Shown in pieces: positions 1 to 59,027 of a stretch of DNA of 64,000 nt. The position numbers and the translations under genes were made by a program. Position 1 is the stretch's first letter. Every line of letters begins with the position of its first letter. A model generated the notes under the pieces. The model searched no databases and had not been told where the DNA came from. It was given only the letters and a program-made list of their open reading frames with translations. Source of the DNA: Moniliella sp. 'wahieum' (taxonomy: Eukaryota); assembly GCA_003971905.1 (NCBI GenBank), contig RSEE01000002.1, forward strand, positions 806,001 through 870,000, given 5' to 3'.

Positions 1-699
1 AGGCCAAAACGCTCGATGCGGGCAACTAGTTGCTCGGCTCTTTGCTGCACATCCTCCTCCCCGCCCTGGCCGAGTCCAGAGATGTGGAGCCTGCGGGAAG
101 CCATTCACGTGAGATGGGACGGCAGCGGCGGTGCCGATGGTACTGGCGAGAGGCACATGCACCTGCCCGCGACGTTTGGGGAGGGGCGCCAAAAAAAAAG
201 GACGAGGGCGGGTGGTACAGCTTGCACCGATCGCCAGGCTCAGTATGTTCAACGTTCAATAGTTCAGTTTGGATGGCATACCACGTGCCACGTGACATGC
301 ATCATGTCCATCATGCGTCGCCCAGCAAAGAGAATCCTACCAGTCGGGCCCAAGAAAGAAAACTCAACAGGAAAAGGTGGTGGGTGTGCGCGCCGACGCG
401 CCAAGAGGTGTGTCGGGACGCTCCGCTTGCTCTCTAGTATATCCCCCTCTCCACGCTTCAAGCTCGCTCTCCTAGTCATGTCGACATTGAAGAGTTATTT
501 GATGTGACCCTACTGCCGCTCCAGCGCCCTGGGCCCGGCCTATGTAGTCGTCGAGTCTGCTGAACGATCGAAACGACGGAAAAACCTGGCACCCTCCTTG
601 GCACATAACAACGAACTGCACAAGGTCTCCGCGCCACTACCATCATGGGACTAACTCTATCGATGAGGGAAATGGTGCGGTATTAAACGTTTCCCCCTC

Positions 700-2300
700 T
701 CAGAGGTGCCCCCACAGCTTGATTGTCCGATCAAAGCCCACAGCGGCAACGTGTTCTTGATCAGGGGATATGTCAACGCTCATGATCTTGTTGTCTCCTC
801 CTGTCCGGAGCTCACGCTGGAGCTGCCAGTCGTCCGCGGACCAAAGCCGAACCGTACCATCGTATCCGGATGTGGCCAAGAAGAGGCCGTCTGATGGGAG
901 CTGGGTGCCTTCGTCGTCAAAAAGGTCCTGGGTTGTGTCCATCACTTCGGCTGAATCTTCACCCAAGGTAGCCTGGTAGTCCAACCAGGACTGGCGTGCA
1001 TCCGGATTGGGAGGGGGCGGGAGCGGTAGAAGCGCAGGTCTGACACCGTTGATGTATGAGCAGGAATGGTATAGGTGGTGCCCAGTGCACGCAGGTCCCA
1101 GATTCGAACCGTGTCGTCGTCGCCTCCCGTGGCGGCCTGCCAACTGTTCGGAGCAAAGTCGACCGCCAGAACACTGGATGCATGGCCAGATAGAATCATT
1201 GCCGAACGGCCAGTGCGCACATCCCAAATTCGTACCAATCCATCCAATCCTCCACTTGCAACCAACGCCCCGTCATCTTGAAATTCGACCGTGTACACTC
1301 CGGAGTGCCCCTCTTGGGCGTACAGCTCCTTTTGCACAATCGGGTCCCAGAGCCGCCACGTATGGTCAAACCCAGCAGAAGCGAGGAGAAGACCTTGTGG
1401 ATGGAAAGCTACTCGAGCCACGCGCCCCTGGTGGCCCAGCATGCGCGCTAGAGGTGCCGGCGAATCGATGGACCACAGACCAACCGACCCATCGGCACAA
1501 CCAGTCGCAATATTGGCTGCGCTGCGGGGTAGCCAGAATGTGGCTCCCGGGTGCCAAGCTGCCCCAGAGACCCGGTTCGAGTGACCACGATATACCCCTG
1601 TCCCGCCCGCAGGACGGCTGGGGAAAGGAGCCGGGCTCATGCGAGGCACGTCCCATAGTTTCACGCCACCGCTCCAAGAGGTAGTGAGAAGGTGTTGACC
1701 ATTTGGGCTGAAGCGGGCCATGCTGACCGCACGATCATCTCCAAGCTGACTGCCCAAGAGGGATAACTGGCCAGGCTCGAGCGCAGCAAATGTCTCGCGG
1801 CGTTTGAGGGCAATGTCCTGTAACCTCAACTTGGCCAGCTTACGTTCCCTCTCCACTCTCCTCTTTGCCCGCTGGAGAGAAAAGATCGCTGTGCGTTTGC
1901 GGGCAGCAAGGACTGCTTCCATATCGGTCGGTTCAGTGTAAAATTCTTCTTCTTGATCCTCATCGTCCGACATGTGGTCCACGTCCGACCCGTCGCCTCC
2001 CTCCACTGGAGCATTAAAATCCACCGTCTCCCCCGCTGCAGCCCTCGCCTCCCGCGAGCGCATTTCCCTCTCAGCCAAATAAGCGCGCAGACGCTCTCGC
2101 CGGTCGGGCTCGCGTTCACCAAAAAGAGTCATTGGCTCGTGGTACTCCCGCAGGCGGTGGCGCACCACACGGTCATTGGTCGGAACGGCGAGAGTGCGTG
2201 CTAGCTTCTTGAGCGCCAGCGAGCGCAACGCCTCCCTCTCGGCTTGGGCAGCGCGGGTAGCGGTCTGGGCATTGTACGTGTACTGTACATCCTTATCCAT
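700..2300 (-). CDS. PRP4: U4/U6 snRNP protein Prp4 (PRP4 motif + WD40 repeats); frameshift near 1000-1030
   Basis: ORF 942..2300 has VPTNDRVVRHRLREYHEPMTLFGE..DRRERLR (PRP4 motif), EEEFYTE, GSQLGDDRAVS and WD40 repeats. The last WD repeats (ATSGYDGTVRLWS, GFDRTIKLW) continue in ORF 700..1227. Confidence 0.93.
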
Positions 2301-4682: not shown

Positions 4683-4820
4683 TGGCCACATGAGGTTAAG
4701 CGCTTTGGCCCAAGAGGTCAAGCGCTTTGGCCACATGAAGTCAAGCGCTTGGCCACATGCGCTCAATGGCTTTGGCCACATGCGCTCAAGCCCTTAGCTC
4801 AAATGTGCCCAAACGCTTAG
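4683..4820. repeat. Degenerate 22-23 bp tandem repeat, about 6 copies (consensus TGGCCACATGMGSTCAAGCGCTT)
   Basis: Read directly: tggccacatgaggttaagcgctt / tggcccaagaggtcaagcgctt / tggccacatgaagtcaagcgct / tggccacatgcgctcaatggctt / tggccacatgcgctcaagccctt. Confidence 0.85.
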
Positions 4821-5780: not shown

Positions 5781-6003
5781 GCAGTGCAGGCAGCAACGAT
5801 GGTGATGTTGATGTCCAGGGGAAGAAGATGGTGCTGTTGCGCCGTGGGACAGAGCACTCTGCGTTGTGCTGGCTGCAGAGATGGGATACTGGTTGCTATG
5901 GGCGCAATGAGAGGGGCGGGGCGGTGGTGAGGAGACATGATGCAACCATAGAGGAGCAGGAGGTAAAAGGAGGCGCGCGTGGCGCAGCCAATCTGTGCGC
6001 ACA

Positions 6004-6199: not shown

Positions 6200-6436
6200 T
6201 GTTGCGACGGTGACTAGTTACTGGCTTCACCGAACGCGACGCACTTGCAGCTTCTCTAGCCCCGAGGCTCCGCGGGCTCCGAAGACTGCTGATGCGCGCG
6301 TAAGTCCACGACGAGTAGCCTAGTTCAGTAGCCCTCGTCCTGCTTCCTACCACCGACGCCTATCTCTCGCCCGCAATCGATCGCCTACGCTACTGTCCCA
6401 AAACGCTTCAGCATCCATTGCGGTCTCCATAGCCGG
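6200..6436 (+). repeat. Dispersed repeat, copy 1 (about 240 bp); homologous to 40993-41270
   Basis: Shared blocks in the same order: tgttgcgacggtgact, actggcttcaccga, ccgcgggct, cgaagactgctgatgc, gtagccctcgtcctgcttcc, tctcgcccgcaatcgatcgcctac, cattgcggt..ccatagc. Confidence 0.9.
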
Positions 6437-10720: not shown

Positions 10721-11061
10721 GATGGTCGTGAGGTGACTGGGGAGCGGGTAGGTCGTAAGGCGACAGGGCAACGGGTAGGGGAGGGGATGGATGGATGGAC
10801 CGTGGTGGTGAGAAGGAGGGCGAGAAGAGGAGGGGAAGCAGTATTTAACTGGATTGGAGTCGGCCGGGGAAGTATTCCGTCCAAGGCGCCTTGCAGCTGG
10901 AGAGTACGGATCTAGGAATGCCCTGGGGATGAAGCTGCGAGGTATGCCCCCGCTGTGGGGATGGCAGAGGAGGCATTGAATATCATCCTCGACTGGACCT
11001 CTTGATGCGAGGGGGGACGCACCCTCACTTACTAGGAGTGCGACGTGACACGTGCGATCAC

Positions 11062-11152
11062 ATGTGACATGGGCTGTGACAGGGGCTGTGACATAGCTGT
11101 GACAGGGGCTGTGACATAGCTGTGAGATGGGCTGTGACATAGCTGTGACATG
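11062..11152. repeat. 11-12 bp micro-array (GCTGTGACA core, about 7 copies) at the head of each 3-kb unit; also about 14065-14157 and 17073-17165
   Basis: gggctgtgacaggggctgtgacatagctgtgacaggggctgtgacatagctgtgagatgggctgtgacatagctgtgacatggg. Confidence 0.9.
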
Positions 11153-11265
11153 GGACGCATCCCCATGGGGGAAGCGGAGTTGAAATGTGCAATGCGAGCC
11201 CGCAGCGCGGTCGTCGGTACGCCGACAAAAGAGCGCGGCTGGAGAGAGTGGCTCGCTTCTGCCGT

Positions 11266-13738
11266 CATGCCCAACACTCGCGCCATTGCCCACCACCATC
11301 GCCGCCACGCCGAACAACTTGGGGATGGAATGTGCGACCGGTGCGGATGGGAAGCCATGCGACGCTTTTTGGCGGCCCCTGCATGACCGCCTCCATCTGC
11401 CCTCGCCGATTCTCCTGGGCCAGGGGCAACGGCGGATGCAAGCCCCAGGCCAGTTGCCGGCGAGTGACCCATCCCCCGTTCGTGGTACCACAAGGCCCAA
11501 AAGTCGACAAGACCACCAGGCCACATGTCCACATGCCCATCCCACATTTCCAAAAGGTACGTCGAACCGCACAGGCCAAACCCTTCTGGTTGGCGATTTG
11601 TAACGTGCTATATCAAGTCTATGTGTGTCTGATCGAGAAAACGTGTTTGACTCTGTACGCGCAGACCGGAAGAAGATCGATCGCAGCCGGAAACGGAGGA
11701 GAATGGAGCTTGTCCCTCCCTCGTCCGAGAAACGGGGGAGAGGATCAGGGTACTTCTGATGGTGGCGAGCAGCCCACACATGCAAAAGCTCATTCATCAA
11801 GGGGAGACATTGTTCCTGCAGCGGAGCCGGAAAAGGGAGCGCCCGACCTCTGGCCATCAGCTTTGGGTGCCCGGCGGGAGGCCCGCCCCCGGCGTTTCTT
11901 GGGATGGGAACCGTGTGGGACGAGCACGGCACGACAGGACCTGACCGACCCAGTGTCGATCGCATTTGGGGATGGCAGAGGGGGTGAGGGGGCACGAACC
12001 ACTTCGGTGCGGACGATCTGTTGGGGACGAAGCAAGGTGCGACTGCGAGCCGCTTCAATGCTGGCGACCACCAGAAGAGGGGTGACCGGAACCAGTGGAT
12101 GCGGGCCGGCCGATTCAGTCTCGGTTGACGGAGGGGACATGGAAAAGGTGTTGGTACTGGGGCGCATACATGTTCGTCAAAGACCGTGTGCGCTCTTCAA
12201 ATGCCAACCCACGCTTCTCCTTATGTTGCGGTCAAGGTATGTTCCATCTCTCCTCTCCTCCTCTATTGTTCCACTGATCTAACCCTTTTCCATTGAACAG
12301 TGGCCTTCTCTTCCTGATTGCCAAGGATGACCGTCGCTTGGCCAGTGCTATTGGGGAGTGTATTCTTTGGTCCTTGACGGCACGGTCTACACTTCGTCGG
12401 CTGCGGAAGCGGAAGGCCTGAGGTCAAGAGGAGAGGCTGCGGGTCGGATTCGGCAAGGAACTGGAGGAGCCAGGCGGCCGGGGTGGTGTCGAGCCAGTCG
12501 GTTGCAGCTGCGTACAGCTTGCCGACGACGACCGCGCCAACGGCACCGGCCAGGCCCGCACGAGCAGTGCGGGTGTTGGGCAGCGGGGGCGTCCCAGCTG
12601 GCACAGGACGAGAGGATGCATCTGAGCTACTTCAAGTGAGGATGGCCAAGATGAAATGTGTTTTTGCGCCCTTTATCGCAGACGCCTGGCTGCTGGGATG
12701 CGGGGTGGCCTGTGACGGATGATGCTGATCGATGATGGTGTCACATGGGGCCCAGGATGAATTCTCCCTGGCGTCTCGCCACTGTCTGCCTGCTGGGGGC
12801 CTGTGACGGTTGATGCTGATCGATGATGGATGGTGTCACATGGGGCCCAGGATGAATTCTCCCCGGCGTCTCGCCACTGTCTGCCTGTGACGGATGAAGC
12901 TGATCGATGATGGATGGTGTCACATGGGGCCCAGGTTGAATTCTCCCCGGCGTCTGGCCACTCGCCTGCAAGAATCCTGTTTCGGTATGTCTGACATTCT
13001 TCACCACGGGGGGCAGGGTAGGGCCTGAGGCCTGAGGGCAGTGTGCTCCCCGCCGTTGGGGTTGAAGACGTCAGGCCGCACGGCAGCAGTCGAGGCAGCA
13101 CAGTGTGCTCAAGCCGAGGCAACGGCCTGAGGCCTGAGGGCAGTGTGCTCCTCGCCGGTTGGGGCAATATTGCCGCAGCAGTGGGGGGGGCGGGGGCATA
13201 AATAACCCGGATGGGTGCAAAACTTCTTGTCTCCCTCCCACCACCTACCTTCTCGAACCGCTCCCAGAGTACCGAAATGCTGCCCCTCCCGCCTCTGCCC
13301 GAGTTCCAGTTCACCTTCCGCCTCTCTCCTCTGACCACGAGCCCGGGACTGCCATCGAACTACACCCCCCGGCTACTGGCTGGCGCCCATCATTCCCATC
13401 CGAGCATCCGAACTTCCAAGTTGGGCACAATCCCAACGCCCAGCCAGGCCCTTCGATTCTGCGCAAGAAGCCGAAGGCGGCTGAGGAGCGGGTGCTGGCG
13501 CCAGCGGTCCCCGGGCCAGGTTCGATGTCAACACGGCCGAGCCTCGCGAGACCGTGCGCAAGCGTCGCCATGGGCCGGTGGTGGTGGAGGTGCAATGCCC
13601 AGAGGTGGCGATGCAGGACGCGTGGGACATGGTCGAGGAGGAGGATTGCCCATCGGTGTTGATGCAGGACGCATGGGACATGGTGGAGGAGGTGCATGCC
13701 CAGAGGAAATGGTGGACGCATGGGACCTGGACCAATGA
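11266..13738 (+). CDS. Orphan gene(s) carried by the 3-kb unit (copy 1; copy 2 about 14271-16744); putative intron 12237-12300
   Basis: Long plus-strand ORFs (11185..12282, 14192..15283, 16160..16744). GTATGT..CTAAC..ACAG is kept in all three copies. The stop codon is followed by a T-rich 3'UTR-like tract. The exon structure is uncertain and this may be two genes. Confidence 0.4.
12708..12962. repeat. About 75-90 bp tandem repeat x3 inside the 3-kb unit (also about 15709-15962)
   Basis: gcctgtgacgg..gctgatcgatgatgg(atgg)tgtcacatggggcccagg.tgaattctccc.ggcgtct.gccact occurs three times. Confidence 0.9.
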
Positions 13739-16700
13739 CTGCCTTTGTTTTCGTTTTGTTTTCGTCTTCGTTTCGTTGTTGTGTTGATCGTTGAAGAATG
13801 AGATTGGTTTGAACCTACAATTGGTTGATAGATAGTGTTGCATAGCACGATGTGAGGCCAAGGGTATGGAAAACGGACGTCTGGGAAGATGAAGTGGATA
13901 GTGGAGAGTAGGGTTCCAGGAATGCCCCTGGGGATGAAGCTGCGAGGTATGCCCCCGCTGTGGGGGATGGCAGAGGAGGCATGAATATCATCCTCGACTG
14001 GACCTCTTGATGCGAGGGGGGACGCACCCTCACTTACTAGGAGTGCGACGTGACACGTGCGATCACATGTGACATGGGCTGTGACAGGGGCTGTGACATA
14101 GCTGTAACAGGGGCTGTGACATAGCTGTGAGATGGGCTGTGACATAGCTGTGACATGGGACGCATCCCCATGGGGGAAGCGGAGTTGAAATGTGCAATGC
14201 GAGCCCGCAGCGCGGTCGTCGGTACGCCGACAAAAGAGCGCGGCTGGAGAGAGTGGCTCGCTTCTGCCGTCATGCCCAACACTCGCGCCATTGCCCACCA
14301 CCATCGCCGCCACGCCGAACAACTTGGGGATGGAATGTGCGACCGGTGCGGATGGGAAGCCATGCGACGCTTTTTGGCGGCCCCTGCATGACCGCCTCCA
14401 TCTGCCTCGCCGATTCTCCTGGGCCAGGGGCAACGGCGGATGCAAGCCCCAGGCCAGTTGCCGGCGAGTGACCCATCCCCCGTTCGTGGTACCACAAGGC
14501 CCAAAAGTCGACAAGACCACCAGGCCACATGTCCACATGCCCATCCCACATTTCCAAAAGGTACGTCGAACCGCACAGGCCAAACCCTTCTGGTTGGCGA
14601 TTTGTAACGTGCTATATCAAGTCTATGTGTCTGATCGAGAAAACGTGTTTGACTCTGTACGCGCAGACCGGAAGAAGATCGATCGCAGCCGGAAACGGAG
14701 GAGAATGGAGCTTGCCCTCCCTCGTCCGAGAAACGGGGGAGAGGATCAGGGTACTTCTGATGGTGGCGAGCAGCCCACACATGCAAAAGCTCATTCATCA
14801 AGGGGAGACATTGTTCCTGCAGCGGAGCCGGAAAAGGGAGCGCCCGACCTCTGGCCATCAGCTTTGGGTGCCCGGCGGGAGGCCCGCCCCCGGCGTTTCT
14901 TGGGATGGGAACCGTGTGGGACGAGCACGGCACGACAGGACCTGACCGACCCAGTGTCGATCGCATTTGGGGATGGCAGAGGGGGTGAGGGGGCACGAAC
15001 CACTTCGGTGCGGACGATCTGTTGGGGACGAAGCAAGGTGCGACTGCGAGCCGCTTCAATGCTGGCGACCACCAGAAGAGGGGTGACCGGAACCAGTGGA
15101 TGCGGGCCGGCCGATTCAGTCTCGGTTGACGGAGGGGACATGGAAAAGGTGTTGGTACTGGGGCGCATACATGTTCGTCAAAGACCGTGTGCGCTCTTCA
15201 AATGCCAACCCACGCTTCTCCTTATGTTGCGGTCAAGGTATGTTCCATCTCTCCTCTCCTCCTCTATTGTTCCACTGATCTAACCCTTTTCCATTGAACA
15301 GTGGCCTTCTCTTCCTGATTGCCAAGGATGACCGTCGCTTGGCCAGTGCTATTGGGGAGTGTATTCTTTGGTCCTTGACGGCACGGTCTACACTTCGTCG
15401 GCTGCGGAAGCGGAAGGCCTGAGGTCAAGAGGAGAGGCTGCGGGTCGGATTCGGCAAGGAACTGGAGGAGCCAGGCGGCCGGGGTGGTGTCGAGCCAGTC
15501 GGTTGCAGCTGCGTACAGCTTGCCGACGACGACCGCGCCAACGGCACCGGCCAGGCCCGCACGAGCAGTGCGGGTGTTGGGCAGCGGTGGGCGTCCCAGC
15601 TGGCACAGGACGAGAGGATGCATCTGAGCTACTTCAAGTGAGGATGGCCAAGATGAAATGTGTTTTTGCGCCCTTTATCGCAGACGCTGGCTGCTGGGGA
15701 TGGGGGTGGCCTGTGACGGATGATGCTGATCGATGATGGATGGTGTCACATGGGGCCCAGGATGAATTCTCCCTGGCGTCTCGCCACTGTCTGCTGGGGG
15801 CCTGTGACGGTTGATGCTGATCGATGATGGATGGTGTCACATGGGGCCCAGGATGAATTCTCCCCGGCGTCTCGCCACTGTCTGCCTGTGACGGATGAAG
15901 CTGATCGATGATGGATGGTGTCACATGGGGCCCAGGTTGAATTCTCCCGGCGTCTGGCCACTCGCCTGCAAGAATCCTGTTTCGGTATGTGTCTGACATT
16001 CTTCACCACGGGGGGCAGGGTAGGGCCTGAGGGGGAGGGCAGTGTGCTCCCCGCCGTTGGGGTTGAAGACGTCAGGCCGCACGGCAGCAGTCGAGGCAGC
16101 ACAGTGTGCTCAAGCCGAGGCAACGGCCTGAGGCCTGAGGGCAGTGTGCTCCTCGCCGGTTGGGGCAATATTGCCGCAGCAGTGGGGGGGGCGGGGGCAT
16201 AAATAACCCGGATGGGTGCAAAACTTCTTGTCTCCCTCCACCACCTACCTTCTCGAACCGCTCCCAGAGTACCGAAATGCTGCCCCTCCCGCCTCTGCCC
16301 GAGTTCCAGTTCACCTTCCGCCTCTCTCCTCTGACCACGAGCCCGGGACTGCCATCGAACTACACCCCCCCGGCTACTGGCTGGCGCCCATCATTCCCAT
16401 CCGAGCATCCGAACTTCCAAGTTGGGCACAATCCCAACGCCCAGCCAGGCCCTTCGATTCTGCGCAAGAAGCCGAAGGCGGCTGAGGAGCGGGTGCTGGC
16501 GCCAGCGGTGCCCCGGGCCAGGTTCGATGTCAACACGGCCGAGCCTCGCGAGACCGTGCGCAAGCGTCGCCATGGGCCGGTGGTGGTGGAGGTGCAATGC
16601 CCAGAGGTGGCGATGCAGGACGCGTGGGACATGGTCGAGGAGGAGGATTGCCCATCGGTGTTGATGCAGGACGCATGGGACATGGTGGAGGAGGTGCATT

Positions 16701-19350
16701 GCCCAGAGGTGGAAATGGTGGACGCATGGGACCTGGACCAATGACTGCCTTTGTTTTCGTTTTGTTTTCGTCTTCGTTTCGTTGTTGTGTTGATCGTTGA
16801 AGAATGAGATTGGTTTGAACCTACAATGTGGTTGATAGATAGTGTTGCATAGCACGATGTGAGGCCAAGGGTATGGAAAACGGACGTCTGGGAAGATGAA
16901 GTGGATAGTGGAGAGTAGGGTTCCAGGAATGCCCCTGGGGATGAAGCTGCGAGGTATGCCCCCGCTGTGGGGGATGGCAGAGGAGGCATTGAATATCATC
17001 CTCGACTGGACCTCTTGATGCGAGGGGGGACGCACCCTCACTTACTAGGAGTGCGACGTGACACGTGCGATCACATGTGACATGGGCTGTGACAGGGGCT
17101 GTGACATAGCTGTAACAGGGGCTGTGACATAGCTGTGAGATGGGCTGTGACATAGCTGTGACATGGGACGCATCCCCATGGGGGAAGCGGAGTTGAAATG
17201 TGCAATGCGAGCCCGCAGCGCGGTCGTCGGTACGCCGACAAAAGAGCGCGGCTGGAGAGAGTGGCTCGCTTCTGCCGTCATGCCCAACACTCGCGCCATT
17301 GCCCACCACCATCGCCGCCACGCCGAACAACTTGGGGATGGAATGTGCGACCGGTGCGGATGGGAAGCCATGCGACGCTTTTTGGCGGCCCCTGCATGAC
17401 CGCCTCCATCTGCCTCGCCGATTCTCCTGGGCCAGGGGCAACGGCGGATGCAAGCCCCAGGCCAGTTGCCGGCGAGTGACCCATCCCCCGTTCGTGGTAC
17501 CACAAGGCCCAAAAGTCGACAAGACCACCAGGCCACATGTCCACATGCCCATCCCACATTTCCAAAAGGTACGTCGAACCGCACAGGCCAAACCCTTCTG
17601 GTTGGCGATTTGTAACGCGCTATATCAAAAGGCTATGTGTCTGATCGAGAAATCGTGTTTGACTCTGTACGCGCAGACCGGAAGAAGATCGATCGCAGCC
17701 GGAAACGGAGGAGAATGGAGCTTGTCCCTCCCTCGTCCGAGAAACGGGGGAGAGGATCAGGGTACTTCTGATGGTGGCGAGCAGCCCACACATGCAAAAG
17801 CTCATTCATCAAGGGGAGACATTGTTCCTGCAGCGGAGCCGGAAAAGGGAGCGCCCGACCTCTGGCCATCAGCTTTGGGTGCCCGGCGGGAGGCCCGCCC
17901 CGGCGTTTCTTGGGATGGGAACCGTGTGGGACGAGCACGGCACGACAGGACCTGACCGACCCAGTGTCGATCGCATTTGGGGATGGCAGAGGGGGTGAGG
18001 GGGCACGAACCACTTCGGTGCGGACGATCTGTTGGGGACGAAGCAGATCTGTTGGGGACGAAGCAAGGTGCACTGCGAGCCGCTTCAATGCTAGCGACCG
18101 CCGGAAGAGGGGTAACCGGACCCAGTCCGTGCGAGCCGGCCGATTCAGTCTTGATTGACGGCGGGGGCATGGAAAAGTGAAGGTACTGGGGCGCATACAT
18201 GTTCGTCGCAGAACAAGGGCGCTCTTCAAATGCCAACCCACGCTTCTCCTTATGTTGCGGTCAAGGTATGTTTCATCTCTCCTCTCCTCCTCTATTGTTC
18301 CACTGATCTAACCCTTTTCCATTGAACAGTGGCCTTCTCTTCCTGATTGCCAAGTATGGCCGTCGCTTGGCCAGTGCGAAGGGGAGTGTATTCTTTGGTC
18401 CGTGACGGCATGGTCTACGCTTCGTCGGCTGCGGGAGGCCTGAGGTCAAGAGGAGGCTGCGGGTCGGATTCGGCAAGGAACTGGAGGAGCCAGGCCGCCG
18501 GGGTGGTGTCGAACCAGTCGGTTGCAGCTGTGTACAACTGACGAACGACACCGGCGCCAACGGCACCGGCCAGGCCCGCACGAGCGGTGCGGGTGTTGAG
18601 GGAGCGCGCAAGCTGAACCGACGGCATTGGCGGGCTGCAGTCCTGAACCACTACCGGGTGTGTGCCGGAGACGGGCCCGGATTCAGGAGGATGGACTGCG
18701 TGGCCTCGGTACTACACAGCGTCCCTTCGAGGCCCTGGCCCTCACTCTTGTCATGGTCGCTCTGATCTTTTGATGCCACAACACACCGCTGCAGCTAATC
18801 CGCGGCACTGCCCAGCAAGGTTCTACCCCTCACTATTGCCATGTCCAATCTGATTTCTGGTGCACTGGCCGCGCTGATTTGGAGCAGACGCGAGGGCGGT
18901 GGTGGTGGTGGCAGCAGACTTGGGTGGCTCGGAAATAGGCTGCTGCACATGTAACCAAAGTGGGCCGGTGAACATTTCACGCACGCCGTGATGGCACCTT
19001 CAACATTCAACCTCCAACTTGAACGTTCAACGTTGGTTCCGCTGTGCCCGGGCGGAACGCTTGCTGAGCCCCAGCGCCTCAGCTGCGCTGGGTCACCTGA
19101 CCATCACGCGCGGGTAAGGGTGACCCTCGACGTGGAGCACGGTATGCAAGGGAGCGCAGGCGGCAAGCGGCAAGCGGCCAGTGTGTGACGCGCTGGTTGT
19201 GTGGCGTGGCCGTCGACATGCCACAGCAGCCCGGCGTCGCTTCTTCTGCCACCACCTCTCGGCCAGCGCGCCCGAGTCTCCTTCCCTCTGCCCGGCGCCG
19301 CCGCTCCCTCGCCCCCATCCCCTCCTTCTACGTCAGCCACGGCGCCCGCC

Positions 19351-40846: not shown

Positions 40847-40920
40847 CTTCTTTCCGTCACTATTTCCCCCGGGCTGTGCCTTCTCACACAGGCCTCAGGC
40901 GCACAACAGTATTTCCCCTT

Positions 40921-40946
40921 TTACTAGTTACTAGTTACTAGTTACT
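40921..40946. repeat. (TTACTAG)x3.7 heptamer repeat built on the ACTAGT palindrome
   Basis: ttactagttactagttactagttact. Confidence 0.95.
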
Positions 40947-40992
40947 ACTCGTATCCAAGACTGGATGCACAACAGCAGAGAAGCAAGCCTGT

Positions 40993-41270
40993 TGTTGCGA
41001 CGGTGACTCGGTGACTGGCTTCACCGATCGCGGCGCACTGCCGGCCTCACTAGCTCACTAGCACCGTGGCACCGCGGGCTGCGAAGACTGCTGATGCAGA
41101 TGCATGATGCGCGCGTCCCGCGTAAGCGCGTAAGCAAGCCAAAGACCAGTAGTGGCCTTCTCCTGTAGCCCTCGTCCTGCTTCCCACGAACCAACGCCTA
41201 TATCTCGCCCGCAATCGATCGCCTACTCCTACGCTTAGAGATCCAATTGCATTGCGGTTCCATAGCGGGC
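40993..41270 (+). repeat. Dispersed repeat, copy 2; homologous to 6200-6436 with several short insertions
   Basis: Manual alignment to copy 1. Confidence 0.9.
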
Positions 41271-44025: not shown

Positions 44026-47000
44026 ATCCCCTCTATCCTGTCCTTCCAACTGGGTTTGATTTGGCGTTTGCCCCCCCTACCCCCGTGCCCCCGTGCCCAT
44101 CCTACTTTGTGCCCCCTATGCCTGTAGATTCCTCCTCGTCTTTTTTAAGAGTGCCCAGCCTTCTTTGTGCTACACATCTCCTTGACCTACTCGTCACACG
44201 TTATTATCAATCAATATCATATTTTTTGTCCAAAAAGCTGTCGGTATCCACAAGAGCATTGCCTTTCTGGGTGCATCTTCTACACTGTGGCCCAGAACAT
44301 TGACAGGACTTGAAGCTTGAGACTGGGTTAAAGAAACGCTGCGCCGAAATCGACTTGCTCATCCGGCGTGTGTTGTGTGTGGCGCCAAGCTCGTTATTTA
44401 GGAAACCAGAGGAACCACCAACAAACCTTTGACCGTCTTGCGCGCCACCTGCATGAGGGAGATTATGCATGTTAACTAAGGTATACCAACTTGTATACCA
44501 CACAGTGTTTCAGGAACGGAGCTACACCCCCAAAGTCCCAATGGCTCCACTCGGCATAAAAAGCGCGGTATAAACAATCCAAGCCAGTGCCGAATTGCCG
44601 CGACGTTTTCCTGAGTGATATAAAGGGGCCGGCGTCCGAGCTAGTGTGTTACATGTTAACTGTGAGCGGCTGAAGGCTGAGGTAGTATATGTCATCGTGT
44701 GCAACGTGGAACCTGCATGACAGCTCCGGTGTCCGCAACTGACTAGGAAATGGGCATATTAGCGGAGCATGCCCAGAGCAGAAAGGAGGGACAAAAACAC
44801 AGCGGCGAGAAGCGAGGAATAGAAGCAGAAGTGAGACACAACCCTCGCAACCAGAGCAAGAACAGAGGCTTCAAGCTTCATTAGGAAAGCAGCGGAGGCG
44901 TCTCACTTGAAGCTTGAAGCTTGACGCGCGACGCGGCAATAAGTCTCAGCACGCACGTTGGGGCAGAAGCTTTAGCAGAAGGGCGAAAATGCATGTGCTC
45001 CCGCATTCTCCCTCTCTGGTTGATGCAGTTGATGAGATTGACGATGAGCTTGAGATCTGAGAGGCCTCCTGGATTCCTGATTGCAAGGGTGAATTCTTAG
45101 CCGAAAACCTTTCCTGAGCGCTCAGACTGTGAGTTGGCTCAATCTATCCTGCAGACCCTACTCGATTCCCACCGGCTCCAGCCTTCAGTACTCAGTGGAG
45201 CCTCGAAGCTGCTCTCCAGGAGCTCGCGCATACCACCCTTACCAGCGGCTTAGTTCACATTTGGGGGAAAGGTTGTACCTTAACGAGATCAATACCTGCG
45301 TTCAAACATCATCTGTTGGACCACTAATAAGAACTCACGACTCAGTACTCGGTACTCAGTGTAATACTCAGTACGTTCAATGAACGCGCATTGCGCGTTG
45401 AATGGTTGAACGTGGAGAAGTCTCAAGTTGGGCCTGCAGGCTGTGCGGATGCAGCGCAGACAGAACGGGGAGGAAAAACAGATGGATAGTGAGTCTCAGT
45501 ACTCAGACTGAGGCCCTGAGGCCTGTGACTAGTGACTGGAGGCATCAGCCAAAGGAAATGGTCAAGTGGCATATGGGTAGTGGGTCTAGGGTCGGTGGCA
45601 GGTGGTGTTGGGTAGTGGCCAAGGAGGAGTGAGTACTGAGTTAGGTCCCTGAGTCTTGAGGGCAAAGTGGGTGGGATGGTGGTGGAAGGATGGGGGCGGA
45701 GGGATGGTGGCGATTATGCTGGCTTTTGCGGCATGGCCGGAGGAGGGAGCGGCCGGGCAGCTGAAGACCAACACGACTAACCTATACTGGCCCTGTGGCT
45801 AGATCCTCGCTTCATCTTTTACCTGTGGCATCTCATCGCTCAGCGATCGCTCAGCGTGGGCATGCTAACTTTGAACGTTTGAATCGCAACTGCTAGCCTT
45901 TGAAATTGGAACGGGCCAACACGGGGACTGTACTGGCAGGGGCGTCTGCGGCCAAGATCGACGGCAGGAATTTTGCGGCGGGGGGCTGGGGTGTGGGCTG
46001 GTGTGTGCTGGTGCCCGCTGGTGTGGGACATCCGGTGGGCAGTGTGTGTGTGGGACGCAGCTGGAATGACTAATGATTAATGAACGTTGAACAGCGTGAC
46101 GGCCTAGGGCGGCCTCTGTCTGCCTGTCGCGGCCTGGCATGGATTGTGTTGATCGATGAGACGGCGCCACAAAGGCGGGATCGTGGATAGGAGAAGGTGG
46201 TGGATATTGGATGCAATCGGCACAGGGTGTGTGCTGCGGGAGGGTAGCTGGTAACCGGGGTAACCGGTAACCGGTAGCCAGCAAGCAGCATCCTGTACCA
46301 CGCAGCCTGCAACCAGGAGTGGGTAGCATGCCGGTAGCTCAGTCTGAATCGGAGAGCAAAGGGCGGCGCAGAGGGTGATGGGATGGCACGTGACGCGTGA
46401 CGCGTGAGGGCGACGCGTGGCATGTGACATGTGACATGTGACATGGGGCATGGGGTGATGCATGATGGTGATGGGGTGCGGCGTGGCGGGCGTGGCGCGT
46501 AGATGGCCGCCGGCCGATGGCCACTGGAGGGCGTGGGCAGGGACTGGCAGGGACTGGATCAAGGCACAATTGGGAGTGAGCGCGGGGAGGTTGAGATCTG
46601 AGAGAGCAGGGTGGTGGGAGAGACACTAGTCACTGGTGCACTACGGGGCGGGTGCGCATGGCGGGGAGCAGTGCCGGGGCAAGCGGGAGTGCCTCGTGCC
46701 TAGCCAAGAGCAGGGCCGAGGACCCAGGCAATAAGCGCAAGCTCGCCCAGCCGCCAGCTGCACGCCCATCCACCAAACCGTCAATCGGGGTTGGACGTTG
46801 GCTGCTCCGCTGGCGCCGAGGCTCGGCGTTCACCTTCGCTTGAACGTTCAACTTGGCGCGCACCGCGGCCGATTGTGTGCACACAGCTGCTCTTGGCTCC
46901 GCCCGCAGCACCACCTGCCTCCTCCACGCGCCAGCCGAGGCCAGCCATCAGCATAGCCGCTCCCGGCTAAACGCCAACACCTGCGTGTCTGCCCTCAGGC

Positions 47001-47074
47001 CCAGTTGCCTCGCCGCCCTCACCACTCGCCTCTCCGCGCCCTCCCTCGCCCCCTCCTCCCCCCCCCCCTGCGCC

Positions 47075-50000
47075 ATGGCCATCACCCAGCTCCAATCCGC
47101 CCGCCGCGCCCCCTCGCCCACCCACGCCGCCACCTCACGCCGTGCCTCGCTTCTCGGCCGTCCTGCCCATCGCCCCCGCTCCACCCAGCCCAGTCTCCTC
47201 CCGCCCACCCCTCGGCTAGCCCCGCGCCTGCCCCCGCCATGGCCATCCGTGCTCATGCCCCTGCCCCTGCCCCTCCGCCCCCCGGCTCAGTTCACGCCAG
47301 TCGCCGCCCCCCACCCGCGCCGCCCCCCTCATCAACCACCACGCCTCTTCTTTGCCCGTCCCGATCGGCCCCGTCCTGCCACCCGCCTGGAAAGAGAAAA
47401 AAAGCGCGAGTTCAACGACCCAGCCGTCATCGGTCCATGGCAGATCGGCGCCCTGATTGGTACCGGCGCTTCTGGTGTTTGTCCCTACACTCTCCATAGT
47501 CATGCTCGTGCTGACCGTCCCAGGCCGAGTGCGCCTCGCCCATCATGCCAAGACGGGCGTCAAAGTCGCCGTCAAGATCATTCCCCGCTATCAGCTCGAG
47601 GCCAAGCTGGCCGCCACGGGCTCAGGCCCTGAGGTCCAGAAGCGTCTCCAAAAGATGGAAATCGGTATTGAGCGTGAAATCATTGTGATGAAGTTGATCA
47701 AGCACGACAACCTGCTCTCGCTCATTGATGTGTATGAGACCAAGAAGGTTCTCTACCTTATTATGGAGTATGTCGAGGGAGGCGAGTTGTTTGATCACCT
47801 CGTCGCTTGCGGCCGCCTCGAGGTTAACACTGCCCGCGACTACTTTCGCCAAATCATGTTTGGTGTAGACCACTGTCACTCTTTCAACATTTGCCATCGC
47901 GACCTCAAACCCGAGAATCTACTCCTGTCCAAAGACAAGCGCCAAGTCAAGATTGCCGACTTTGGCATGGCAGCACTTCAGCATTCGGGCCGCATGTTGG
48001 AGACCTCATGCGGCAGTCCGCATTACGCTTCTCCCGAGATTGTAAGCGGCAAGTCGTACGTGGGTGCCGCAACCGACATTTGGTCATGCGGCATTATCCT
48101 CTTCGCCCTTCTCTGCGGTCGTTTGCCGTTTGATGACCCCAACATGAGCACCCTTCTGCAAAAGGTAAAGGATGGCCGCTTTGAAATGCCACGTCATCTA
48201 CGCGACGAGGCGGCCAAGGACCTAATCCGCCGCATGCTAGTCGTTGACCCACGGAACGCTATACGATGGCGAAATCTTCCACACCCTTGGTTCAACGATT
48301 ATGGCCGCTTGTCATCAATCAACCCTGTGCCGGTGTGTGACCGATTCGGGCCCGATTGAACTCCCCTTGCTCTGGAGGAGGACGACATTTTCCGTGGTCT
48401 TACCTTCCTTTTCCAAGGGTACAGCAAGGAAAAGTTGCAGGCAGAGCTCTGTTCTCCGATGGATACTTTGCCCAAACGATTTTACCGTTTGTTGCTGAAA
48501 AACCAGCTCGCTGCCGAAGAGGAGGAGGAGGAAGAGGAAGAGGATGGGGACTTGGTCACAGGTTCTTCCAACGGTTCGACAGGCACGTATGCCGCCGAGC
48601 ATTCATATTTGGGTAACTCGTCCGCACCGCCGAACTCTCGCCCTCACCCTGACGCTTCCTCCATCGCGTCCAACCCTGCATTCCCGGCTGCCTCTCACCC
48701 AGTTCGAGCCCGGCTCCACTCCCACAAGAGCTGCACACTACCTCGGCCAAGGTGGTTGCCCCCCACTCCCCCTTGACCTCAACTGGCAGTCCACAGATCG
48801 GCGCAATCAAACCCGACTTGCGGCACCCCAATGGTGTGACGCCCCAGGCTGCGGGGGTCGCAGCGGAGGCACTGGCTTCCCTGCATGCTTACAATCTGCG
48901 AGATGGGCCTGCTCGTCGCCCGTCTCTGTCGTCTGCCCCACCCGTTGCCCCATCAGCAGCCGCAGCGATCGAAGCACAACGTCATGTCCCTACCCCCACC
49001 AGCCCTGGATTTGGCGCATACACTCCTTTGGCACCCAACACACGCATTGCCCTACTTCTTCTGCTTCAGCTATTCCGATGAAAGGCCATCGAGCGCTCGC
49101 CGTCTTTCGATCGACCCTTCTTCCCCCCAACCCGCTGTGCACTTTGCGCGTGGGGCCACGCTCAGTGATTCAGCCCAGGCGGGGGCACCGCCATCCCTCC
49201 CGGCCTTACCACATGTCGGAGATGACGCAGCAGCCCAGCGCTTCTTCCACGAAGTGGCAACGGAACTTGCCATTCTTCGTGCAGAGGGAGGGAACTCTGA
49301 GCGTAGCAACCGGCTTCAGGCCAAGATTGACCAAGCCCAAGCAGCCTGTGGCGGACCAATACAGCTTCGAATCCCACATCTGGCCGGCGGGCTTCCATCC
49401 ACTTGGCGTCGCACCAGTTTCCCCGCTCTCTCTCCAGCAGCGCTGCCGTCAACATGGAGGCGAGAGGTCAAGCAGGTTGGGACCGCTTCACCTGCAGGCG
49501 CAAAACTTTCTGTCCCCCCAAGCCCAGCATATGAGGTTGCACGTTTGGGCGGTTCAAGTCGGCGGGGATCTACCAGCAGTGCAATGAGTCGTGGACGGTC
49601 AGATGGTACTACCCCCCGCAGCGATCGGTTCCAGGATGCGGATGAGGACGAGGGAGAGCCCGAACTGGGCGATGGCAAGCCGAGACGGGCTCTTACCTCT
49701 TTAGTCGCCGTACTTCGGTCTTGTCAGGCACGAGTCTACTGCCGCAGGTCATTCTCCTGCGCCTGCCTTTTCCCCAAAGCCTGCATCAGTCTTAAGTTGG
49801 GGTTGCCGAGCCAATCTAACCCCGGGGGATGGGAGAGAAGTGGTGGAGCGGGACGGGAACTCAGTCGGCGGTTAAGTGGTTCGGCAGCCCTGTCCAGCAC
49901 TTCAACGGCCAACTCGGGCGGGACGTCTTTCCTGAACGCCAACAGGAGCGGCACCAGCAGTCCATACTCTCCCATTTCCCCCGGCCTCACTGCCTTGCCT

Positions 50001-54581: not shown

Positions 54582-57500
54582 GGTCTTGGAGGGTGATGGT
54601 GGGGGAGGTTGGAGATTAAGTGGTTGAGGGCAAGAATGATGAGGTGCGGATCGTGACTAGCAGAGTGGTCGCCAAGAGTAGGGAAAATGGGGTAACGCTA
54701 GATAGGTAACACGAGGGGTTGGGAACTCGAGTGGTAACAAAGTACAGGAGCAGGGACGCTCCCAAGGACTAGGTGATTGAAGAGCGACGTTCCGCGAAGG
54801 AGGATTGAGAGCTTGACCAGAGAACAAAAAGGATGGGCGATGGCTTTCGAATCTGACCCCAGCTCCCCAGTAGTGTCGGAGAGGGGGGGTGATGCAGTAG
54901 GGATCAAAGCCAGAAGGAGTTAGAGGAAAGAGGCCAATGGTGTCCGACGGGCTTGGGATGATGAGAGGGGTCCAAATTGTGAGAGGCGCCTATTGATGAC
55001 AGAGGCCGGGGAGAGATGGAGGAAATGAAGTGTGAGAAGCTCAGGACGGGGTGGGAAGCAAAATTGACAGATCCAGGGGGGGGGAGGGGGACTCCGGGGT
55101 TGGATGTTGACGTTGGTTGGGATGAGGATTGGTTGTTGGGTTTTGCCGCGCCGAGAGGACGTGTGCAGCTGGTGGCTGTGTGGTGGATTATCGGCTGGCA
55201 GCAACTTTTGGAAGCTTCTGGGGCTGGTGCCTAGCCTGATCGATAGGGCGCCTCGGGCCTGAGCCTCAGACGATCGATGACGCTTTTGCCCGCACGTTGA
55301 GCAAGTTCAACGTGTTCAACGTTCGTCCATCGGAACGTGTCGCCATGTCCGGGCTGCAGGATCTGAGGCCCGAGGGCTTGACCGTCGCTCGGACGGTGTT
55401 GGTGCCCACGTCTACGGGAAACGGGTGACAAAGAATGGGTGATCCATGTGCGAGCCTCAGCGCCTCAGCGCTAACTAAGCTCTCATCGGTGACCGGTGAC
55501 CAGGGTGCCGTAACGTGTGACATGTGACATGTGACGTACAATGTGTGATGCACGTGATGAATGATGTGTGATATGCCACACGGATTAAACGTTAAACGTT
55601 AAACATTTAAAAGGCGCCATGGCGTTGAGGTCTAAGGATCTACGATCTAAAAAGGCTTTAAGAAAAGGCCTGGTGGTGGGAATGGAACAGAGGCATCATT
55701 AACGTTTAACATCATTGATCATGCATTAATCTTGTTAGATCTAGCGGCTTCCTGCTGTGAAACGGCGTGTTCAAAGAAGTTAATGAGATGTGAGATATGA
55801 GATCTGAGAGCGACCGCCGGCCGGTGACCGGTGACTAGTGTCGACTAGGTGACTATAGGAAGTTGACCAGGTTTCGCTATTAGCTTGACGCGCAGGAATG
55901 TAGGCAGAAAAAAAGCTGTGATACATGATGCATGTACGTGTTGCATGCCTCTACTTCCACCCTCCTACCGCACCCACCAGAACTTCATCCGTTTCTGTCC
56001 ACCGCTAACGCTTTGATTAGCGCGTTAGCCTCAAGTCATGCTCATGGCTCAGGCGCTCAGCCTGACCACCTGAAGAGATCGATAACCCGCCTCACACCAA
56101 AGCACACACATCCCAAAGGTTCAAGCAGATCGGATCGAGATGTTGCAACGCATGGAGAGGCACGCGGTGCATGGTGCTTGCGGGCAACAGGATTGCAAGA
56201 GTCACGGAGACATTCGGACAGTAGCTACATACCACAGGAACACATATAATTTGCAGCACTCCAAACAGTAGGGACAAAGGAACGCTGCGTGTAGATCGAG
56301 GACCGAGTAGAAGCTATGGTTGCCGCAATAATGATCGGTTATACCCGTTACATACCGGCTACTAGTGGCTATACTCGTAACTAATCACTCTTTACTCCGC
56401 CTCCGTCGATCTCATCTGCTCTCCCGCATTCAATATTCATGGTCTCCGTAAACCGTGTGTGCCTGGTGGGATGACTCGTGACTGATCGCTGTGAACACGC
56501 ATGGTGGCTTGCATGTGATGACGAATGTGACATTGTTTTCATGTCACTCGCATGTCACGTTTTGTCACGATGCCATTATACACGCCACTTCCTAGCATCG
56601 TGGGAACACACGTCGGGGAGTTGGGGGCGTACGCGGGTGTGACCCAATCGAATGTTAATCGAGTTGATCACAGGGCGGAGTTACTCGTGACTCGCGTGAC
56701 TAGTTACGCGTTGCGAGCGGAGTTACGCGTTGCATCTGGTGTCGGTGTGACATGTGACTGCTGTAGGGACTGTGCGGGCGACGGGAAGTGGACTGGAGCT
56801 TGGAATGGCCAATTTAATGAGAAGGTGAAGGTGAAGGCGAAGCTTGAACTTGGCCGTGCTGGCAGTGAAGCTTAAAGGTTGAAGCTAATATATAATAGCA
56901 ACTCTAGTAGCTAGTAACTAGTGACTAGTGTGATGGCGCGGACGTCGGCGATACGAATAGTATGAGATGGTGCATCAAGCTTCAAGCTTCAAGCGCAATA
57001 TGCGGGGTACGTCACAACAACTCAATTAAACACGCACGAGGGAAGAGAATGATTAATGAAGTGAAATTGGAGGTCGGGGATATAGGAGAGTTCCAACATC
57101 TCTTGAACCTTGAACCTTGAAGCTTGAAGTCTGAGGCTGAGGCCTCAGCCTGATAAGCTCGCTCCAATTTCCAATTATGCATCCTGTGTCTCTCGCTCTT
57201 CCCTTTCCTTTTGCTTCTGTTATCTTCCCGATGCCTTCTTTTTCCTCCCACGAACGACCCTGTCTTTCCCCCCCTCTGACAGGACCTTGGTCTCCCTCGT
57301 TCAGCCCCGATTGTTACACCCACATGATCATACACTTTGTGTTACTAATCACTCCATTATGCCGGCCGTTGCCATCCCGTAGCCCCCTCCTTTGCCTGAT
57401 ATACTACCAAGACTTGGAGCTTCACGCTTCATGTGAATGGCGGACATTCGTGAGGGCGAAATGTGCGTCACGCCACGTGTGTGATTCCATTTCCAGATAT

Positions 57501-59027
57501 GTCGGAGGTTAGCAAAGATAGAAGAGTGAAGAAGTGATTTTGGTGTGACCAGTCAGATGTGAATTCACTGTGTTATCATGGAGGGCAGTGACTTGACTAG
57601 TGAACGTATAATGAACAGTGACTAGTGAACCCTCTGTGTATTTTGCAGAGGGGGATCCGTGTTGGTGGATGCATTCATTTCCTCTTATACTCGCATTTTT
57701 TGACACTGCAGCCAACTGAGATATAGTAAAGTGTAACAGTGAAGAGCTTGTTTTGTTTCGCCTGTGTGTGCCATAGAAGTTTCCCCCAACAGTAGTGTCT
57801 CGGACGAGAAGACTTGGATCCAATCGAGACACTTGACACACCCAAACTGAAGTATTGCGTATAGTAAAAAAACTAGTAAAGCTTGAAGCTTAATTGAAGC
57901 TCGAAGCTTGAAGGGGGTTCTATAATCGACGTACCAGGCTCGACGAGTGGCACCGAGAAGAAAGTCCAGGCCGGGGGCGCTGATCGCTGCATTGATCGCG
58001 CCAATATAGGAACCGAGTGACCATCAAATATTCTCTTGTGTGTCTCATGGATCTCGATCAGATATCTCGGATCCCATCAAGCATCTTACTTTTCACACCA
58101 AAACTCCGCTGGTACATCCTCTGATGGGTACTGCATGGTGACATGGTGGCAACCCGCTTCCTAGTGCCTATAAGCTTTTGCCATATTTTCTGAGCCTGTG
58201 TTCTTTGCGTCTGTTGACGACCACACACAGCATTATCACTGCCACAATAAGCGCTCACGCTTGTCTGCCCCCAAAGGCCTAAGGCCTAAACCCTTCTTCT
58301 CTTGGCCATCTCTCCTCTCAGGCCTCAGGCTGAGGCTCTATCCCTATTGGTTTGGCACGAACAAAAGCAGTCCAAACGCCGGACACACTGTATTGAGAGC
58401 GAGAGCTGGTGGTTATTATAGACAAAACAGCGCCTCTTCTTTTTGTCCCACTGCTTTAAAGCTCTGTAAACGATATGGATGCAGAGAGGGGTCGAATAGT
58501 GAAATCCGCGCGCAGATTCACCAGCTACTCACTCAACAACGGCAGGGCATATTTACCGGTCATGCAGGTCATGGGTGCGGCCGCTCGAGATGTGTCGCAG
58601 GGCCGCCGGCAGCAAGGCTACGCGTCCGGAGGGGGAATATAATGGTTAGGCTACTCAGATACCAGGCATCGTCCACGAGGGCATCAGCGCACACGCGCAT
58701 GCGCTTTGAAATTTGAACTTTGAACGGTGAGCGGGGTTGCATTTGCCGCTCCTGACCGCTGTGGCTCTCCCGCCGAGGTGCCAACGGCGGAGCGCGGGCA
58801 CCGAAAGGCCGAGAAGAGCCCGGTCATGTGACCTGGCGTCACAGGTGCGCCCAAGTAGCCCCGGCGATCCGGAGGCCGCGCGCCGGATGTGGAGAATATA
58901 TATAACACTCTGGCTCGACTCTGTCCAAGGGCACTTCCCATCAGCACATCTCGCACCCATCCTTTTCTCTTGCTCTCTCTCGCTTCCCTCTCGACCCCGT
59001 CATCGTACTCCTTTTGCTCATATCGCC

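Follow-up and report, generated by a model that had tools for sequence, protein, structure and literature searches.

Among described systems, those built on hairpin-forming DDE enzymes (hAT and Transib excision, RAG coding joints, and the fungal domesticated hAT enzyme Kat1) leave junctions in which a short direct duplication lies beside an inverted copy of the adjacent end, the palindromic (P) nucleotides, with occasional untemplated bases at the join. The target duplication is 8 bp for hAT and 5 bp for Transib/RAG, and the P nucleotides of hAT and Transib/RAG junctions come from either flank, vary in length, and are often accompanied by base loss. To our knowledge, few mutational signatures have a readable mechanism apart from those of V(D)J recombination and of transposon excision. 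Here we describe 71 short arrays of period 7 in a 64,000-nucleotide stretch of the genome of Moniliella sp. 'wahieum' (contig RSEE01000002.1, positions 806,001 to 870,000 of the forward strand; hereafter the window, numbered from 1), which differ in sequence but obey a single rule, TNA-xy-y'x'-TNA-xy, where N, x, and y are any base and y'x' is the reverse complement of xy. By analogy, the P-nucleotide junctions of hairpin-forming DDE enzymes appear to be the closest known in form to these arrays. The duplication in the arrays is 5 bp, which is the Transib/RAG length and not that of hAT, and the 5-mer carries an asymmetric anchor. Unlike hAT and Transib/RAG junctions, the arrays hold an inverted copy of always 2 nt, taken from one flank (43 instances against 3), with copies of 1 and 3 nt represented by only 3 and 1 instances and nibbled variants by none; unlike in DDE systems generally, only the T-N-A at one end of the 5-mer serves as the target, and the events iterate into arrays.

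Structure-forming microsatellites also fold, and quasi-palindrome template switching makes templated changes that create perfect palindromes; self-complementary, foldable repeats and templated, palindrome-creating changes are thus common to these processes and to the present arrays, but the former have no trinucleotide anchor, no single period, and no 5-bp repeat with a 2-nt inverted filler arising from a non-repetitive site. In behavior, the closest known counterpart would seem to be artificial, namely the in-vitro cut-and-grow synthesis of palindromic repeats, in which Bst polymerase and nickases make short repeated palindromes bearing the nickase site; there, every tandem unit carries the site of the cutter, growth proceeds by cutting, copy-back, and extension, and the setting is a test tube with thermophilic bacterial enzymes and long products (PMC10520511). 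The arrays described here, in contrast, are 12–27 bp long, have thousands of possible chromosomal sites, and lie in a eukaryote. In Galileo, of the P superfamily, the duplicated targets are 7 bp long and have one fixed palindromic consensus, GTAGTAC, with A-N-T at its center (PMC2775673). There, too, a cut-and-paste enzyme is associated with an odd palindrome of 7 bp, and the retention of both copies would yield a tandem 7-bp palindrome; the present arrays, by contrast, are centered on T-N-A, vary freely in their outer pairs, and have a minimal product of 12 and not 14 bp. The intergenic repeats of Ustilago maydis are likewise very short, belong to a basidiomycete, and have been interpreted as transposon scars, but they are described as one 10-bp repeat, in contrast to the many sequences under one rule with a 7-bp period seen here; the window also differs from the maize smut fungus in being intron-rich, and its Mtr4 fragment is only 64% identical to the maize smut protein, which marks the source as another species. 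TNA-anchored palindromic heptamer arrays were not found described in a full-text literature search that was thin on subscription journals, which is weak evidence of novelty.

Tandem Repeats Finder returns many period-7 rows in the window. When exact tandem runs of at least two copies were compared with 20 dinucleotide shuffles of the window, period 7 (at least 14 bp) gave 47 runs against a shuffle mean of 3.65, while the counts at periods 6, 8, and 9 were 44 (shuffle mean 13.6), 10 (1.15), and 5 (0.4). Odd palindromes, in one rotation or another, account for 29 of the 47 period-7 units, and TNA is at the center in 28 of these 29; chance would make about one in nine heptamer units palindromic, and one-quarter of those would have T..A. 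At the other periods, palindromic units make up 22 of 85 at period 5, which is about what chance gives, 3 of 44 at period 6, none of 10 at period 8, and none of 5 at period 9. The core TNA-xy-y'x'-TNA with the same N in both anchors is present in 68 arrays, whereas 50 shuffles averaged 2.52 and never exceeded 7. With like and unlike N taken together, TNA-anchored cores number 107 against a shuffle mean of 7.9, whereas those anchored on ANT (10 against 8.1), CNG (21 against 26.8), and GNC (32 against 26.0) do not depart from the shuffles in this way. The spacing is equally restrictive: TNA followed by a 4-bp palindrome gives 78 instances (shuffle mean 2.0), TA or TNNA with a 4-bp palindrome only 5 (2.25) and 4 (0.6), and TNA with a 2-bp or 6-bp palindrome 6 (9.0) and 0 (0.65). 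The shuffle, anchor, and spacing controls, which the first-pass annotation of this DNA had proposed, thus leave only TNA with a 4-bp core above background, and the period-7 TNA pattern of the window is confirmed and very strong; the example strings quoted in that annotation are present as described at 17 of 17 positions. When runs down to a length of 12 bp are admitted, period 7 yields 200, and the 71 of these that obey the rule are the arrays treated below.

As a control in natural DNA, 271 kb of metagenome contigs carrying the pattern (TSACATG)3, which occurs at at least 120 loci, were scanned for rule-obeying arrays with other cores. Only 13 were present, that is, 0.048 per kb against 0.94 per kb in the window, and among the 120 metagenome loci listed a single one had at least three core types. 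With the control so much poorer, "one rule, many sequences" characterizes this genome rather than DNA in general. The (TGACATG)n and (TCACATG)n repeats of at least three units are themselves frequent in metagenome contigs (at least 120 loci, G+C 0.31–0.66), and some of these loci hold dozens of copies.

The elementary form of the arrays is the 12-mer TNAxy-y'x'-TNAxy, a 5-bp direct repeat around the reverse complement of xy. The structural reading in the first-pass annotation was therefore exactly right, and it can be refined to a 5+2+5 arrangement (43 observed against 0.13–0.28 expected). In an unbiased scan for 12-mers composed of any 5-mer W (bases w1 to w5), the reverse complement of w4w5, and W again, 61 were found on the + strand. 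Of these, 43 combine w1=T with w3=A, where 0.28 would be expected, and the other fifteen (w1,w3) pairs are near background; the reverse strand gives 46. When the lengths of the direct repeat and of the inverted copy are varied independently, the 5+2 combination alone stands out (43 against 0.13), the counts for a 5-bp repeat with an inverted copy of 0, 1, or 3 nt being 1, 3, and 1, and the mirror arrangement, in which the inverted copy is taken from the TN end, is found 3 times against 43 from the distal xy end. Periodic extension around the 10-bp core is most commonly (0,2), in 12 arrays, and (2,0), in 8, and the core without any extension, (0,0), accounts for 3 of 68 arrays, where random flanks would give more than half.

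The position of the junction can be read from spacers longer than 2 nt. Spacers of 3 and 4 nt between TNAxy copies occur 14 times each, against about 2.5, with y'x' at the start in 17 and at the end in 5, 3 of these 5 being ambiguous. Because y'x' lies mostly at the spacer start, the variable bases sit between x' and the next T; they do not prolong the inverted copy, and TNAxy+y'x' behaves like one intact end. Among the period-8 exact repeats, 8 of 10 contain TNA (6617, 30458, 41001, 41046, 41119, 41375, 45508, and 55454), and 5 of these 8 consist of TNAxy, y'x', and one extra base per unit.

The two parts of the product arise together. After masking of the 1,725 array bases (about 1.7 kb), TNA followed by a 4-bp palindrome occurs 187 times against 162 expected (standard deviation 14), a 4-bp palindrome followed by TNA 157 times against 162, and single 7-bp odd palindromes 178 times against 175.5. 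Since these half-products are at background, the palindrome and the direct repeat must be formed in the same step, and pre-existing palindromes are not the substrate. The array lengths are in keeping with repeated addition of 7 bp to a 5-bp site: 27 of the 71 arrays are 12 bp long, 16 are 13 bp, and 5 are 14 bp, as expected for 12 bp plus chance extension, followed by a second group of seven arrays of 19–20 bp and by single arrays of 25 and 27 bp. An exact 5+7n length in the predicted phase is seen in 23 of 71 arrays, against 8.5 under random phase, including all seven arrays of 19–20 bp and that of 27 bp.

Only T and A are fixed, while N and the 4-bp core vary freely, and there is no conserved recognition core. 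Fifteen of the 16 possible ANNNNT palindromes are used, so that the free use of cores proposed in the first-pass annotation holds and its figure of 13 is replaced; the unused one, AGCGCT, has a partial example only, at 45115. Cores are used about as often as the supply of TNAxy sites would predict, with modest deviation (chi-square 28.7; simulated p 0.02), the test including paralogous copies, which inflate two classes. N, too, tracks the availability of TNA sites, being G in 39, C in 18, A in 10, and T in 4 arrays, against 760, 594, 247, and 260 for TGA, TCA, TAA, and TTA in the background. Read on the + strand, 49 of 71 arrays have a purine at N regardless of the direction of the event, the background ratio of TGA to TCA being 760:594; this excess may stem from strand-biased replication or transcription, or in part from the paralogous copies. 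Thirty minimal events can be oriented, 14 on the + and 16 on the − strand, with N=G in 12 and N=C in 13, and their flanks carry no motif except a mild A/T preference at −1. One TGA, at 46071–46092, carries two events, one per strand and each using its own flank, which indicates that the anchor is a symmetric trinucleotide and that each event takes two bases from one side. Of the cores, 78 have like and 29 unlike N, and 13 of the latter are G/C swaps; the excess over point mutation suggests that some events copy the anchor in the inverted sense.

The arrays are confined almost entirely to non-coding DNA and are clustered. The window (G+C 58%) contains eukaryotic genes split by introns, and only 1 of the 71 array starts falls inside the open reading frames (ORFs) supported by Pfam (16.4 kb), the other 70 being in the remaining 47.6 kb. 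Pairs of neighbors at most 60 bp apart number 24, against 7.6 expected outside gene spans (maximum 16 in 1000 placements), and neighbors with different cores are out of a common 7-bp register, which shows them to be separate events rather than a single array altered by mutation. Over 337 residues, an Mtr4 fragment shares 83% and 77% identity with two assembly proteins and at most 68% with any named protein, Malassezia species being the best, followed by other basidiomycete fungi; the source is accordingly treated as a basidiomycete that has no close named relative. At the Rfam gathering score, a tRNA alone is matched in the whole window, and the arrays match no RNA family. The genes and arrays are as follows, the strand being unassigned for all arrays listed.

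942–2300, minus strand, PRP4
In the window, SHR3-like gene
About 19.1–24.4 kb, clathrin heavy chain
26.3–30.2 kb, SMC protein
34.3–37.6 kb, Mtr4 helicase
In the window, cyclin, protein kinase, glutathione peroxidase, and FAD/NAD reductase genes
40775–40847, tRNA-Trp (Rfam tRNA match 40775–40846)
13022–13037, TGAGGCC array (core AGGCCT), 16 bp, with paralogous copies at 13124 and 16125 within a 3-kb triplication
13124–13139, TGAGGCC array, 16 bp
16125–16140, TGAGGCC array, 16 bp
31567–31585, TCATGCA array, 19 bp = 5+2×7, first base T and last base y
37774–37795, TAATCGA/TGATCGA array, N changing between units
38310–38348, two neighboring arrays, TGACCGG then TGACATG
39244–39330, composite of about 12 consecutive 7-bp units (one of 6 bp) with changing cores (TAAACGT, TCAAGCT, and others)
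39429–39440, minimal 12-mer TGAGA-TC-TGAGA, identical 12-mers at 45051, 46592, and 55798 with unrelated flanks
39494–39513, TGACGCG array, 20 bp
39616–39645, TAAAGCT/TCAAGCT array, including one 6-bp unit
39683–39697, TCATCGA array, 15 bp
39789–39858, TGAGGCC (39789–39803) and TCACCGG (39845–39858) arrays
40921–40947, TTACTAG array, 27 bp (5+3×7 plus 1), 74 bp downstream of tRNA-Trp
41353–41369, TGAACGT array, 17 bp
41830–41845, TCACATG array, 16 bp
44906–44924, TGAAGCT array, 19 bp
46071–46092, two arrays of different core on one TGA, AATGA-TT-AATGA leftward and TGAAC-GT-TGAAC rightward
46259–46276, TAACCGG array, 18 bp
46389–46467, three neighboring arrays, TGACGCG (19 bp), TGACATG (25 bp), and TGATGCA (12 bp)
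55487–55535, TGACCGG (15 bp) and TGACATG (20 bp) arrays
55585–55604, TAAACGT array, 20 bp
55798–55835, TGAGATC (12 bp) and TGACCGG (15 bp) arrays
56886–57129, cluster of six arrays, TAATATA, TAACTAG, TGACTAG, TCAAGCT (20 bp), TGATTAA, and TGAAGCT
58274–58330, TAAGGCC (16 bp) and TCAGGCC (14 bp) arrays
247–60478, rest of the 71 arrays, 12–13 bp, for example at 247, 2602, 4039, 6139, 6948, 11060, 14065, 17073, 19022, 26066, 44309, 44647, 44868, 45051, 45185, 45495, 45525, 45630, 46592, 51139, 55699, 56428, 56746, 57617, 57879, 58705, and 60466

Our tentative preference, held at somewhat less than even confidence, is that the arrays are scars of a sequence-anchored, one-step break-and-rejoin event that adds 7 bp, and are neither selected motifs nor ordinary microsatellites. 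The structure, anchor, geometry, junction position, one-step character, and clustered non-coding distribution of the arrays are directly visible in the window, and from them we infer a break, a hairpin, end joining, and a TNA-directed nuclease or transposase. In the predicted single event, a plain TNAxy would be converted to TNAxy-y'x'-TNAxy. The 5 bp starting with T-N-A would end up on both sides of the junction, as after a 5-bp staggered break; alternatively, the 5-bp duplication may stem from an element that was inserted with a 5-bp target duplication and then lost. The end finishing in ...xy would gain the inverted y'x' as a P-type addition, most simply via a hairpin formed at that end and opened 2 nt off its tip, and the ends would then be joined, sometimes with 1–2 untemplated bases; the extra bases at the junction fit what is expected for end joining beside P-type nucleotides. 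Since one strand of the product reads TNAxy at two places and the opposite strand at one, each event renews its own target, and repeated events, possibly with the help of slippage, would build the 5+7n arrays. The first-pass annotation had suggested nicking, hairpin formation, off-center opening, and rejoining as a candidate origin; in outline this agrees with the geometry and with the junction bases, but no corresponding enzyme was found in the window.

There is a real chance that the arrays mark an undescribed enzyme, with kinship to break-repair or transposon-type scars. In its full form the proposal would be that an endogenous enzyme of the fungal lineage, either a nuclease or a domesticated or active transposase, recognizes only T-N-A, cuts with a 5-bp offset, and has one end hairpinned and opened exactly 2 nt from the tip, thereby writing a self-renewing 7-bp palindromic scar; so detailed a version we consider possible but rather unlikely. 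Several points weigh against the break-and-rejoin account. All of its support comes from a single 64-kb window, which is the evidence base throughout, and no nuclease or transposase was found there by Pfam analysis of 131 ORFs together with relaxed scans. The inverted copy is derived from the TNA-distal end of the 5-mer in 43 cases against 3, and a one-sided copy of this kind is not predicted by symmetric cleavage at two transposon ends. The footprints of hAT, Transib/RAG, and CACTA are heterogeneous, whereas here the 2-nt length is fixed and nibbled variants are lacking; the hAT and CACTA transposases named in the first-pass annotation are not supported by the window, where no hAT, CACTA, Transib, or other transposase was found, and the event is far more stereotyped than hAT/RAG footprints. 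The sole element with a 5-bp flanking repeat of TNAxy form is an 848-bp TG...CA element (TCAGG), and a single 5-bp flanking repeat would begin or end with TNA in about 1 in 8 cases by chance. Finally, 31 of the 71 arrays are off the simple 5+7n phase, many of them with N differing between units, at which the exact-run test breaks, and the arrays with unlike N need an added inversion-type step or mutation.

A route without a double-strand break, to which we assign a minor but appreciable probability, is nick-primed copy-back, in which a nick 5' of the T would allow 5 nt to be displaced and recopied, 2 nt (y'x') to be copied back on the flap, and the new end to be ligated to the flap 5' end across a T-N-A triloop. 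Such a route gives the exact product, the one-step character, and the one-sided inverted copy without any transposon, single-strand folding places TNA in a 3-nt loop in 5 of 5 arrays tried, and an in-vitro analogue exists in the synthesis described in PMC10520511. Yet the 1–2 extra bases at x'|T in 17 of 28 longer spacers are not flap-templated and resemble end joining more than nick ligation, the route gives no reason why exactly 5 nt should be displaced and 2 copied back, the predicted array hairpins are weak (−3.3 to −7.6 kcal/mol, z scores −0.7 to −1.6), and no nickase was identified in the window. The foldability of the heptamers likewise underlies hairpin-promoted replication slippage, by which odd palindromes would stabilize slipped strands and expand like structure-forming microsatellites. 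Arrays of more than two units (19–27 bp) do exist and are self-complementary except at N, slippage could gain or lose whole units in an existing array, and one paralogous pair differs by whole units. It could not, however, found the first 12-mer from a 5-mer, and chance supplies only about 0.1–0.3 such 12-mers per window; periods 5, 6, 8, and 9 show no enrichment of palindromic units, the anchors CNG, GNC, and ANT would fold as well or better yet stay at background, the folding energies of the arrays are unremarkable, and a preferred boundary phase is not predicted, all of which makes this explanation improbable. The dismissal of plain slippage and of a single transcription-factor motif as the origin, already made in the first-pass annotation, is upheld by the TNA-only 5+2 geometry and by the position of the junction.

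Excision footprints of a cut-and-paste transposon present an arithmetic fit, in that an element of the Tc1/mariner/pogo type with TNA as its 3-bp target duplication, leaving 2 nt from each inverted terminus behind, would yield the target-site duplication, xy, y'x', and the duplication again, with 3+2+2 = 7. TNA is a symmetric target of the kind that DDE transposases use, Tc4/Tc5 targeting TNA and PIF/Harbinger TWA, and the 13 G/C swaps of the central base resemble mismatch repair in annealed overhangs. Termini of this type would nevertheless fix the core, yet 15 of 16 cores are used according to site availability; such footprints would span 10 bp and have random flanks, yet unextended cores are found in 3 of 68 arrays only and the extension is exactly the next xy; and no element with TNA flanks and matching termini was found in the window, where inverted 9-mers with flanking repeats are array-derived or chance matches only. 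We regard this origin as very unlikely. A similarly small probability attaches to selection of the arrays as functional elements, that is, as binding-site arrays or as structure-forming transcript signals in promoters and terminators. Their confinement to non-coding DNA, their clustering, the position of some immediately upstream or downstream of genes (19022, 26066, and 37774), and the preponderance of TGA over TCA on the + strand (39 against 18) would agree with such a role, but the free core means that there is no single protein site, arrays of protein sites need no palindromic paired positions, no Rfam family matches, and the sharp 5+2+5 boundary with junction-specific extra bases signals a mutational origin. 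That the arrays are an artefact of assembly or base calling is scarcely credible: diverged paralogues (94.7–97.5% identical) share arrays at equivalent places (11060/14065/17073 and 13124/16125), coding DNA is avoided, and no type of error known to us inserts 7-bp palindromes in a sequence-specific manner.

Some further candidates were considered and rejected. By-products of a long terminal repeat (LTR) integrase would put TG/CA, and not the reverse complement of xy, next to the duplication. Target duplication of 7 bp at pre-existing palindromes is contradicted by the minimal product of 12 and not 14 bp and by the lack of enrichment of odd palindromes outside arrays. Stop-codon insulators would have no need of palindromy, and repair primed by CpG deamination is at odds with the equal frequency of N=G and N=C in the oriented events. 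An ordinary microsatellite is likewise rejected, 28 of 47 period-7 units being TNA-centered palindromes, the end phases of the arrays being non-random, and other periods showing no enrichment of palindromic units.

If the pattern and its break-and-rejoin origin hold genome-wide, the arrays would constitute a clean endogenous mutational signature, in which the anchor, the stagger, the inverted copy, and the junction can all be read. The signature would point to a specific enzyme, traceable by comparing genomes with and without it, and would provide a natural parallel to the in-vitro "cut and grow" production of palindromic repeats. With 6-bp palindromes and short tandem arrays being continuously created across intergenic DNA, it would explain how the intergenic DNA of the lineage is filled with restriction-site-like palindromes and fast-changing 7-bp arrays, and these palindromes and arrays would serve as raw material for regulatory change and as strain markers.

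Two transposon-like structures are present in the window. The 848-bp element at 39865–40712, situated 63 bp upstream of tRNA-Trp, starts with TGTCACGGGC and ends with GCCCGTGACA, has the form TG...CA with inverted termini of about 10 bp, and is flanked on both sides by the 5-bp direct repeat TCAGG; from these sequence features it looks like a solo LTR inserted beside an RNA polymerase III gene. The second structure is a pair of inverted termini CACGGGCGGGTGT, 13 bp and perfect, at 4593 and 9118, each followed by A-rich stretches, with 23-bp subterminal tandem repeats at 4683–4802. The ORFs in the intervening 4.5 kb appear to be non-coding, a Pfam search relaxed to E up to 1 gave no match to them, and no duplication was found flanking the pair. 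The terminal sequence CACGGGC(G/T)G is common to the pair and to the 848-bp element, and neither can be tied to the arrays. A scan of the window for inverted 9-mers with flanking direct repeats gave 95 matches, nearly all due to chance or derived from arrays, and the motif GTCACGGGCGGG has the four expected close matches in the window and no more.

A tandem triplication occupies 10898–18606, with a unit of about 3.0 kb, copies 94.7–97.5% identical, and the third copy truncated. It contains tandem repeats of 84–91 bp (12699–12963 and 15707–15962), 51-bp repeats, and 12/23-bp repeats of TGTGACATGGGC; none of its ORFs, the longest of which has 521 codons, is matched by Pfam, and comparison of the 3-kb copies revealed no 7-bp indels at the arrays. 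The non-coding segments 6200–6388 and 40993–41226 are about 70% identical over 230 bp and differ by whole repeat units, having TGATGCG against TGATGCA-GATGCA-TGATGCG and an 8-bp duplication, CTCACTAG. In addition, long C/T-rich polypyrimidine tracts with periodicities of 6–13 bp lie at 42084–42223 and 47025–47274, upstream of the cyclin and kinase genes.

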